From Parcubacteria group bacterium (lineage in GTDB: Bacteria > Patescibacteriota > Minisyncoccia > Moranbacterales > UBA11712): 64,000 nt of DNA. The notes under the pieces are model-generated. The model did no database searches. It had not been told where the DNA came from and saw nothing but the letters and a program-made list of their open reading frames with translations. The stretch spans positions 178,771 through 242,770 of the forward strand of contig JBAZXV010000001.1 of assembly GCA_041659685.1 (NCBI GenBank), written 5' to 3'. Positions 11,383 through 11,523 of the stretch are shown here, one piece after another (within the stretch, counting starts at the first letter, position 1; each line of letters starts with the position of its first letter). Position numbers and translations under genes: made by a program.

Positions 11383-11523
11383 CCCTGTTCGATTGTGGGT
11401 GGAGAGGGATGCAAACATCGCTGCTGCGCTCCTTGAAACCCATCGGTTTCAATACTTCCGCCGCGGGAAAACTCCCGTTTTCCCGACCCCTTTCCCTGTT
11501 TGATTGTGGGTGGAGAGGGATTC
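11383..11523. repeat. A 27-bp direct repeat (ccctgttYgattgtgggtggagaggga), one copy of which is the 3' end of tRNA-Tyr plus 14 nt of flank, bracketing an 88-nt insert with a conserved double-hairpin core
   Basis: Repeat copies lie at 11383-11408 and 11497-11523 with 1 mismatch. The insert at 11409-11496 contains the hairpins TTGAAACC-CATC-GGTTTCAA and GGGAAAAC-TCCC-GTTTTCCC. The core is about 86 percent identical to 23847-23915. Confidence 0.5.

Follow-up and report, generated by a model that had tools for sequence, protein, structure and literature searches.

The window (the whole stretch of DNA analyzed here, 64 kb or 64,000 nucleotides) carries on its minus strand, in order, a TPR-like gene, tRNA-Thr(UGU), tRNA-Tyr(GUA), a weak terminator, and a ClpC-like AAA+ gene. 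The TPR-like gene (11750-12469) forms the upstream end of the locus and is followed by a two-tRNA unit, of which tRNA-Thr(UGU) is the first gene (11602..11675; ARAGORN; Rfam tRNA, 68.6 bits) and tRNA-Tyr(GUA) is the intact target gene discussed below (11507..11589; ARAGORN; Rfam tRNA, 57.6 bits with a full-length alignment). This tRNA-Tyr is identical at 83 of 83 positions to the tRNA-Tyr of contig L016. A probable intrinsic terminator of the tRNA unit was recognized by eye at 11288..11318 on the minus strand, where CAACC..GGTTG is followed by TTTTTATTT. Its position is equivalent to that of the terminators of L002, L005, and L006, and a consensus scan made no call at this site. This terminator would place the element described below inside the tRNA transcription unit. 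The ClpC-like gene (11276/11243-8778, minus strand) lies downstream of the terminator. The gene content of the window also includes a short EF-Ts, PSP1, and a membrane-anchored ClpC-like protein, and on this content and the nearest genomes the window is assigned to Candidatus Moraniibacteriota, a part of CPR/Patescibacteria.

The order TPR gene, tRNA-Thr, tRNA-Tyr, terminator, and ClpC is conserved among relatives. In L002, L009, and L010 the terminator follows directly after tRNA-Tyr and the spacer is 256-269 nt, compared with 507 nt in the window, so that these loci represent unoccupied tRNA-Tyr sites in related species. An earlier note on this DNA had proposed that related genomes be searched for an empty site or for a larger integrated element; the former is present in these three loci, and no large island or larger occupant was found at the tRNA-Tyr site in any of the related loci compared. 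On the contig of the closest relative (P0002, 74% identity) the spacer is long enough for an occupied site.

Within the window, the 27-mer CCCTGTTYGATTGTGGGTGGAGAGGGA has exactly two occurrences, 11383-11409 and 11494-11520, both on the plus strand, where 0.00 are expected by chance (100 shuffles). The 27-bp direct repeat of the tRNA-Tyr 3′ end described in the earlier note is thus real; its second site, given there as 11497-11523, lies 3 nt away from the true position. The repeat extends to 30 nt at 29/30 identity (11380-11409 and 11491-11520) and, more weakly and with the T-loop included, to 37 nt at 34/37 (11380-11416 and 11491-11527). The start-to-start spacing of the two copies is 111 nt, and the sequence separating the two 30-mers amounts to 81 nt rather than to the 88-nt cargo that had been claimed. 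On the minus strand, the tRNA-proximal duplication (D, 11491..11527) was delimited by repeat search. It comprises the final 21 nt of tRNA-Tyr, which span G53 in the T-loop to discriminator A73 (11527-11507; ARAGORN and Rfam), together with 16 nt beyond the gene (C AATCAAAC A GGGAAA, 11506-11491). The distal duplication (D′, 11380..11416, minus strand) reads GTTTGCA, which is the T-loop sequence with two changes, followed by TCCCTCTCCACCCA and by C AATCGAAC A GGGAAA. Of all short-range direct repeats in the 64 kb, none is stronger than the tRNA-Tyr repeat and a repeat at rpsI. A separate Logan assembly made from this sample (L008) contains the insert and the distal copy at tRNA-Tyr without a single base difference, which rules out an assembly artefact. 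Since the gene-adjacent copy is preserved, tRNA-Tyr suffers no damage and the element is transcribed along with it as a passenger.

The conserved core of the element (11417..11495, minus strand) is composed of GGAAAGGGGTC, a first hairpin (GGGAAAAC/GTTTTCCC), GCGGCGGAAGTA, a second hairpin (TTGAAACC/GGTTTCAA), GGAGCG, and an end reading ...GCGAT. Covariance models, built first from two copies and then from eight, score this core at 111 bits (R1) and 100 bits (R2) and match only one further sequence within the window. This second copy lies ~12 kb away on the same strand, immediately behind rpsI (~23847-23915; 88% identity over 69 nt by BLAST), with a core at 23837..23915 that scores 110.5 bits with R1 and 99.4 bits with R2. 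The rpsI gene encodes ribosomal protein S9 (23934..24371, minus strand; called as an ORF, with a Pfam Ribosomal_S9 match on the identical protein) and is the target of this copy. Its proximal duplication, found by repeat search (23932..23955, minus strand; CCCTCAATGGAAAAAGCGATAGCT), encodes ..PQWKKR and the stop codon. The distal duplication (23803..23826, minus strand; CCCTCAATGGAAGAAATAATAGCT) matches it at 20/24 positions and is decaying; it would read PQWKK followed by two stop codons, without the conserved C-terminal arginine codon. Upstream of this second core are TCCTGA and CATTAAGGG, which is at 8/9 positions the reverse complement of the target sequence CCCTCAATG (p ~0.07). The JGI contig L013 shows the same rpsI arrangement as the window.

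One reading of the locus would do without mobility. The window tRNA-Tyr sequence amounts to 1.3 repetitions of a unit of 111 nt, and the distal tRNA fragment is followed by a repeat of those 16 nt that follow the tRNA, as slippage or unequal crossing-over of a unit of tRNA end and spacer would produce. However, the spacer is 88-94% identical to sequence behind the window rpsI and in genomes with 38-60% protein identity, and no Rfam RtT match was obtained. Tandem duplication alone is refuted by these dispersed copies and we give it hardly any weight as the explanation of the locus; it may have occurred there as a secondary event.

The element as a whole is ~80-110 nt long. In an alignment of the eight copies for which DNA is available, the 5′ core, made up of GGAAAGGGGTC and two perfect 8-bp hairpins, is conserved, and the 3′ part is variable with a short 3′ consensus GCGAY. 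Across the eight copies the hairpins are preserved by a single double change, from G-C to A-U, and by insertions and deletions that are paired, and at all four stem positions that differ between the two window copies pairing is retained through G-U on the gene strand only; the eight core copies are too alike for strong covariation statistics. A search of the locus against Rfam at E≤10 returned only tRNAs and nothing credible on the element, with no RtT and no ribozyme, and only the two tRNAs pass the gathering threshold of Rfam 15 in the whole window. A tRNA-mimic or cloverleaf was considered and rejected, as the minimum free energy fold is a four-way junction with a z of only -2.0 to -2.6 and a closing stem that is the target-derived inverted repeat. 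Exact-pattern scans of IMG/VR with the att-like repeat and two core patterns gave no match, and neither did BLAST of the unit against phage and plasmid collections, so that neither a vector nor an autonomous parent emerged from these searches.

Since gene callers occasionally predict ORFs that run through the element, copies in other genomes were searched for with its translations. In total, eight copies with DNA were obtained (two in the window and six on other CPR metagenome contigs), and five more are represented by read-through ORFs only. The sample of eight junction sets is small and, since the copies were located via ORF miscalls, biased. The targets of the six other copies are tRNA-Tyr, tRNA-Thr, tRNA-Arg, tRNA-His, the 5′ end of rnhA, and another rpsI. 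The first protein search gave P0121 and, through it, L015 (GCA_021811055.1). Identity between the ribosomal proteins of this genome and those of the window is only 38% for S4, 44% for S9, and 52% for S13. The L015 rnhA copy is 94% identical over 70 nt to the window tRNA-Tyr copy and lies antisense in the 5′ end of the gene, between flanking repeats of 63 nt at 61/63 identity, 55 nt of which are perfect, that include the start codon and the first 18 codons. The perfect 55-nt repeats indicate what would be a very recent insertion. A diverged relative of the element (R2, 31 bits) lies behind the L015 rpsI, with 54-nt repeats at 52/54 that cover the final codons as well as the whole intrinsic terminator.

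Eight more ORFs came from a second search, in which concatenated reading frames were used. In L016, whose PSP1 is only 60% identical to that of the window, tRNA-Tyr is followed by the element, a perfect 24-nt repeat starting from G53, and a PhoU-like gene. In L017 and L018, tRNA-Thr is followed by the element and a 23-nt repeat at 22/23, and L019 carries two copies, behind tRNA-His and tRNA-Arg. The contig L014 encodes exactly the S9 of the window and shows the conserved 5′ part of the element leading into a different 3′ part and then into TCCCACCGAACCCA, which is the 3′ end of another tRNA. The Logan contigs of the window's sample end exactly at the branching point of L014, which is the expected effect of a third copy in the same genome; L014 is thus apparently a third copy in the window's own organism, beside another tRNA 3′ end. 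Among the copies known from protein only, the element is read in frame inside an ABC ATPase gene in P0124 and lies at the 5′ ends of genes in P0125 to P0127. In the 70%-identity relatives of the window, the covariance models detected no copy.

The tRNA-Tyr core is 88-94% identical to the copies at window positions 23837-23915 and in L015, L016, and L019. Near-identical copies across distant CPR, dispersed, polymorphic for presence, and each with a duplication of its own target, identify this as a mobile element with horizontal spread, and the family, as judged from these contigs, is spread across distantly related Patescibacteria (CPR). The suggestion in the earlier note of a tRNA-targeting miniature element was therefore essentially right but too narrow: a dispersed small element, four targets that are tRNA genes cut at the T-loop, and empty sites are all observed, whereas a restriction to tRNA genes is contradicted by the copies at rpsI and rnhA.

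Conserved hairpins, compensatory and G-U-compatible changes on the transcribed strand, and the placement of the window copies within host transcription units and in the same orientation would also be expected of a small RNA or processing signal that selection maintains for its function, the duplications being incidental. Against this stand the copies antisense to rnhA and inside coding sequence, the absence of the element from the orthologous sites of close relatives, the perfect 55-nt repeats of a very recent insertion, and the lack of an Rfam family. We consider such a host function improbable as the explanation of the locus. An RNA role in the element's own mobility is compatible with the explanation by a mobile element that we prefer.

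Every locus, read in the orientation of the element, has the layout U, D, 0-17 nt, an inverted copy, the core, a variable 3′ part ending in GCGAY, D′, and V. The element occurs at unrelated targets and in both orientations, and all eight copies are bracketed by a duplication of their own target, with lengths of 22, 23, 24, 24, 37, 54, 63, and ~70 nt. D starts with G wherever the boundary can be placed, and in four of the five tRNA-linked copies it starts at G53 (GTTCGAA or GTTCAAA); targets outside tRNA genes are similar to a T-arm in its 3′ half (GGGATTCCCAC, CCCCTC). At tRNA-Arg of L019 the duplication runs through the terminator, and its two copies are diverged and clearly homologous (0/2000 shuffles). 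As to the other end, two duplications share their end point exactly with a terminator T-tract, and those at tRNA genes stop 1-4 nt past the tRNA. These positions hint, and this is speculation, that RNA 3′ ends or hairpin-stalled synthesis might set the other duplication boundary.

In five of six young copies the mismatches of D′ to D are limited to the first 7 nt. These read GCAGCAG in D and GCATCAT in D′ at L015 rpsI, GGCCCGG and GGTCCGT at L015 rnhA, GTTCAAA and GTTCAAC both at L017 tRNA-Thr and at L019 tRNA-Arg, and GTTCGAA and GTTTGCA at the window tRNA-Tyr; at L016 tRNA-Tyr they are unchanged. The rest of D′ (16-55 nt) has no mismatch in the young copies, with a single one in the window. 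Two mismatches within 7 nt beside 55 perfect nt make a pattern that cannot be ordinary decay.

An inverted copy of the first ~12-14 nt of D lies directly 5′ of the core and matches the original rather than the mutated version of the target. It is significant in three of the eight copies only, namely L017 (14/14, T-arm; 0/2000 shuffles), L015-rpsI (12/12, an exact reverse complement of the target boundary reaching 6 nt into U; 0/2000 shuffles), and L019-Arg (11/11; 1/2000 shuffles). The inverted copy is weak at the window rpsI, as given above, and at rnhA, non-significant at both Tyr copies, and absent at tRNA-His. In the window tRNA-Tyr locus, AATCAAAC (11498..11505, minus strand) matches the reverse complement of GTTCGAAT by eye at 6/8 positions, which alone is non-significant, and it occupies the position of the significant inverted copies in L017, L019-Arg, and L015-rpsI. 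The L015-rpsI junction offers 3-5 nt of microhomology for a snap-back (GTTTT and AAAAC). Fillers of 6-17 nt lie between duplication and inverted copy; their interpretation as diverged duplication holds for L019-Arg and fails for L015-rnhA and the window rpsI. A constant combined length of insert and duplication was considered because both L015 copies measure 164 nt, and was rejected, the other loci measuring 107, 111, 129, and 132 nt, and 118 and 162 nt in L019 (hand-counted).

The footprint allows the origin of the repeat to be weighed. The earlier note had offered as one reading a remnant attL/attR pair after loss of a larger element. Such an element, a tRNA-Tyr island or prophage whose attP included the tRNA 3′ end, would have integrated and then been reduced by deletion to 81 nt. 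As at the tRNA sites of tyrosine integrases, the 3′ end of the tRNA is duplicated from the T-loop, which Williams is said to have described in 2002 as the classical crossover place of tRNA-targeting tyrosine integrases; the repeat passes the tRNA end, the gene-proximal copy keeps the tRNA intact, and the 7-nt mismatch zone has the size of a recombinase overlap region. Unlike those sites, the element here is only ~90 nt long and occurs also at protein genes, with an inverted target copy as well as the mismatch zone. A single core is found at tRNA-Tyr, -Thr, -Arg, and -His, rpsI, and rnhA, each with its own target-specific repeat of ≤63 nt, which is not what an integrase attP core would lead one to expect. 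At rpsI and rnhA the target-specific repeats of 24-63 nt take in the rnhA start codon or a whole terminator, and because no attP could have carried these beforehand, the remnant reading is unsupported. It would also need eight independent deletions that all left the same ~80 nt, no larger occupant was found at any locus examined, no Phage_integrase or recombinase Pfam match was seen in the 30 window ORFs, and the core has no match in the IMG/VR, phage, and plasmid collections. We regard an integrase scar as very improbable. The repeat behaves as a duplication made at insertion and not as a recombination core, and it is very likely that the locus holds a non-autonomous mobile element with its target duplication rather than an att scar.

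A derivative of a DNA transposon, similar to a MITE and moved by a DDE or HUH transposase with unusually long and variable staggered cuts, would be small, non-coding, and multi-copy, with target duplications on both sides, as the element is. Elements of the IS1634/IS1182 type are said to make long variable staggers, and a few IS groups make duplications of tens to hundreds of bp. Short inverted repeats do bracket each copy. However, they consist of target sequence and are different in each copy, which leaves no element-borne terminal inverted repeats for transposase binding, in contrast to MITEs. The 3′ part of the element is variable, and a non-exhaustive look at the window and ~100 kb of loci showed no transposase. 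Bacterial MITEs such as Correia, RUP, and Nezha (PMC11602168) resemble the element in being short, non-coding, multi-copy, structured, located in intergenic regions or at gene ends, and dependent on functions in trans. The duplications of prokaryotic MITEs have a fixed length of 2-10 bp (PMC11602168), whereas those observed here vary from 22 to ~70 nt. Overall, a MITE-like origin appears unlikely, though less so than the integrase, tandem, and functional RNA readings.

Long variable duplications, a target-derived inverted repeat, and an error-prone stretch of 7 nt argue against both a fixed-stagger transpososome and site-specific recombination, and the same three features are the expected trace of a polymerase that repeatedly switches templates. 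On balance we find it probable that the repeat is a target duplication caused by a small non-coding mobile element at the tRNA-Tyr 3′ end, with insertion by template switching; the template-switching mechanism taken by itself is put forward only tentatively. In this proposal of a non-autonomous copy-and-paste element, new copies would be synthesized by a template-switching polymerase (copy choice), and the element template would probably be provided in trans as RNA or single-stranded DNA. A 3′ end within the target would first copy ~12-14 nt of its own upstream sequence backwards, giving the inverted target copy, and synthesis would then move onto the element template. The growing strand would next re-anneal imperfectly at a G-initiated site similar to GTTCRAAYCC, which would leave one or two mismatches in the first 7 nt, and the target would finally be copied again to give the long duplication.

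Several observations count against this explanation. The change of GTTCAAA to GTTCAAC at two independent loci may not represent copying errors; the 7-nt zone may instead be carried over by the element from the site it last occupied, as the recurrence of GTTCAAC in L017 and L019-Arg would suggest. The inverted target copy, significant in three of eight copies only, the short fillers, and the small and biased sample of copies likewise count against it. A scan of 30 window ORFs (64 kb of genome) yielded no integrase, transposase, or reverse transcriptase. A recent paper (PMC13011429) reports no detection of group II introns in Patescibacteria.

The window tRNA-Tyr locus itself requires an extra event, either an older stump or a partial tandem duplication, and this too counts against the preferred explanation. 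Two 16-nt stretches, one behind the tRNA (C AATCAAAC A GGGAAA) and one behind the distal fragment (C AATCGAAC A GGGAAA, with A next), resemble the start of the insert and look like an inverted T-loop followed by the first bases of the core. A reading of the 16 nt as the native trailer was initially adopted because L005 has AATCGAATAG after its tRNA-Tyr fragment. The last 13 nt of D′, CGAACAGGGAAAA (extending 1 nt past 11380), form a stretch that in L016 is present on the element or proximal side only. The native-trailer reading was dropped on these grounds, and the best interpretation of the distal 16 nt is that they are what is left of another copy, a truncated one. The repetition of the 16 nt would then be explained by either of two scenarios that fit the sequence. 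A new copy may have landed beside the stump of an older one and been joined to it through the GGGAAA microhomology, or the unit of tRNA end and element may have been partly duplicated in tandem. Neither scenario requires an integrase.

The footprint matches no transposon class with which it was compared. SINEs mobilized by target-primed reverse transcription (TPRT) are non-autonomous and show target duplications of variable length, messy 5′ junctions carrying extra or inverted stretches, and a 3′ end that docks at a partly complementary nick. Variable duplications and irregular 5′ junctions are shared by the element, whose 5′ part is conserved and whose 3′ part is variable apart from the short GCGAY consensus, apparently the reverse of SINEs, with no A-tail; we know of no reverse transcriptase partner for the element and of nothing similar to SINE/TPRT in bacteria. 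Cas1-type integration produces long duplications through widely staggered attacks, and casposons prefer the 3′ ends of tRNA genes and also the ends of EF-2 genes. Long duplications and tRNA-gene 3′ ends are likewise found here, whereas the fixed stagger of Cas1-type integration (14-15 bp or the repeat length) and the terminal inverted repeats, cas1, and polB of casposons were not seen. Downstream of E. coli tyrT, a 178-bp unit that starts with the last 19 nt of the tRNA is repeated 3.14 times (RtT RNA, RF00391). In both cases the 3′ end of a tRNA-Tyr is repeated downstream in the same transcript, but the E. coli repeats form a local tandem array, whereas the element is dispersed and has no sequence or Rfam match to them. 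Rickettsia palindromic elements are short structured repeats of reduced genomes that can sit in frame in protein genes, as the element does in P0124; they are not known to show the long target duplications and the T-loop preference that the element has. Integron attC sites, IS91 (GTTC target), retron a1/a2, Xer/dif, and Cas1 were also considered and share one feature each with the element; none explains the long target-specific duplications.

Literature searches on small mobile elements and tRNA-gene targets in bacteria and Patescibacteria returned no description of such an element for Patescibacteria, where the tRNA literature concerns group I introns. The element appears to represent an undescribed family of non-autonomous mobile elements with an unusual insertion footprint, and there is a real chance that the mechanism itself is new. 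It is conceivable, if rather doubtful, that the family exemplifies a new bacterial mode of moving DNA, in which a structured, SINE-like or "snap-back" element of ~90 nt enters G-initiated, T-loop-like sites through target-primed synthesis with template switching, builds its own terminal inverted repeats out of target sequence, generates duplications of 22-70 nt with the help of a candidate polymerase or reverse transcriptase, and crosses between distant CPR lineages. The genomes of CPR/Patescibacteria are tiny and are thought to be poor in transposons. Movement of the element between lineages with ~40-50% ribosomal-protein identity would imply an unrecognized mobilization machinery and an equally unrecognized route of gene flow, and the long variable duplication, the target-derived inverted repeat, and the 7-nt error zone provide a signature by which such machinery can be searched for. 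The element also accounts for the breaking of CPR metagenome assemblies at tRNA and ribosomal-protein loci, and for the pseudo-tRNA fragments and spurious small ORFs that annotation pipelines report at such loci.

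The element can also lie within a protein-coding frame. P0124 (ENA/JGI, 276 aa), known here from the protein, is encoded by an ABC-transporter ATPase ORF that crosses an element copy in frame (..LARERGRENGSFPVAETLKPLGFKERERQ..), a property shared with the Rickettsia palindromic elements, which are likewise read through in frame. The spacing of insertions was compared among loci. In L015, the contig of a distant CPR genome (GCA_021811055.1), the two insertions at 4049–4275 and 9169–9386 belong to different sub-families and differ in the length of their duplications (63 versus 54 nt), and the start-to-start spacing is identical for both, at 164 nt. 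The corresponding values are 162 nt for the copy behind tRNA-Arg (L019-Arg) and 107–132 nt at the remaining loci, and the equal spacing of the two L015 insertions may be due to chance. At the tRNA-Thr locus L017 (9986–10044), just 15 nt separate the T-arm of tRNA-Thr from the 14-nt inverted copy of that arm on its downstream side. In the precursor transcript the two could form a perfect duplex, in competition with folding of the tRNA. In the short-read assembly of the window's own sample (Logan, SRR18595301), contigs break at the end of L007, the start of L008 and the end of L012, with positions within tRNA-Thr, within the element and exactly where its conserved part ends, indicating that the element causes assembly fragmentation at these loci.

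Rearranged tRNA genes were also found with other hairpins. In L005 (2652–2908; also L003 1–215), a contig from another genome, an intact tRNA-Tyr with the acceptor GGGTGCG, an allele unlike the window type, is bracketed by window-type tRNA-Tyr fragments, a 21-nt 5' piece and a 14-nt 3' piece whose first base is again T60. The 53 nt directly ahead of the 3' fragment are hairpin-rich and show no relation to the element core. This arrangement looks like replacement of the resident gene by an incoming tRNA gene, whose counterpart in L003 is 5'-truncated. At the start of contig L001 (1–290), upstream of a ClpC-like gene, the hairpin CCGCCGTTGGCGGGG occurs twice, interspersed among scrambled tRNA-Tyr pieces that comprise the anticodon/variable arm and a 3' end, CCTCCCTGCCCA. 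No tRNA was called in this interval by ARAGORN. A degenerate second tRNA-Thr lies 3' of the intact tRNA-Thr in two contigs (L016 2143–2282; L006 2772–2830); its anticodon stem-loop and/or T-loop have given way to GC-rich hairpins, for example CCCGCCTCTCGCGAGAGGCGGG and CCCGCCCCGCTGCTCGCGAGCGGCGGGG. These hairpins appear to be another type of small insert in tRNA loops.

Within the window, G+C is elevated, up to 0.54, at 55500–58450, a stretch with no Rfam match that contains three long, putatively coding ORFs (55544–56182, 56956–57504 and 57819–58448) with no Pfam family. An 855-aa ORF (58396–60963) likewise has no Pfam family, and between it and a small ORF lies a 30-nt direct repeat with a spacing of 50 nt, ending GACCCGGGGAACTTAA (61023–61102).
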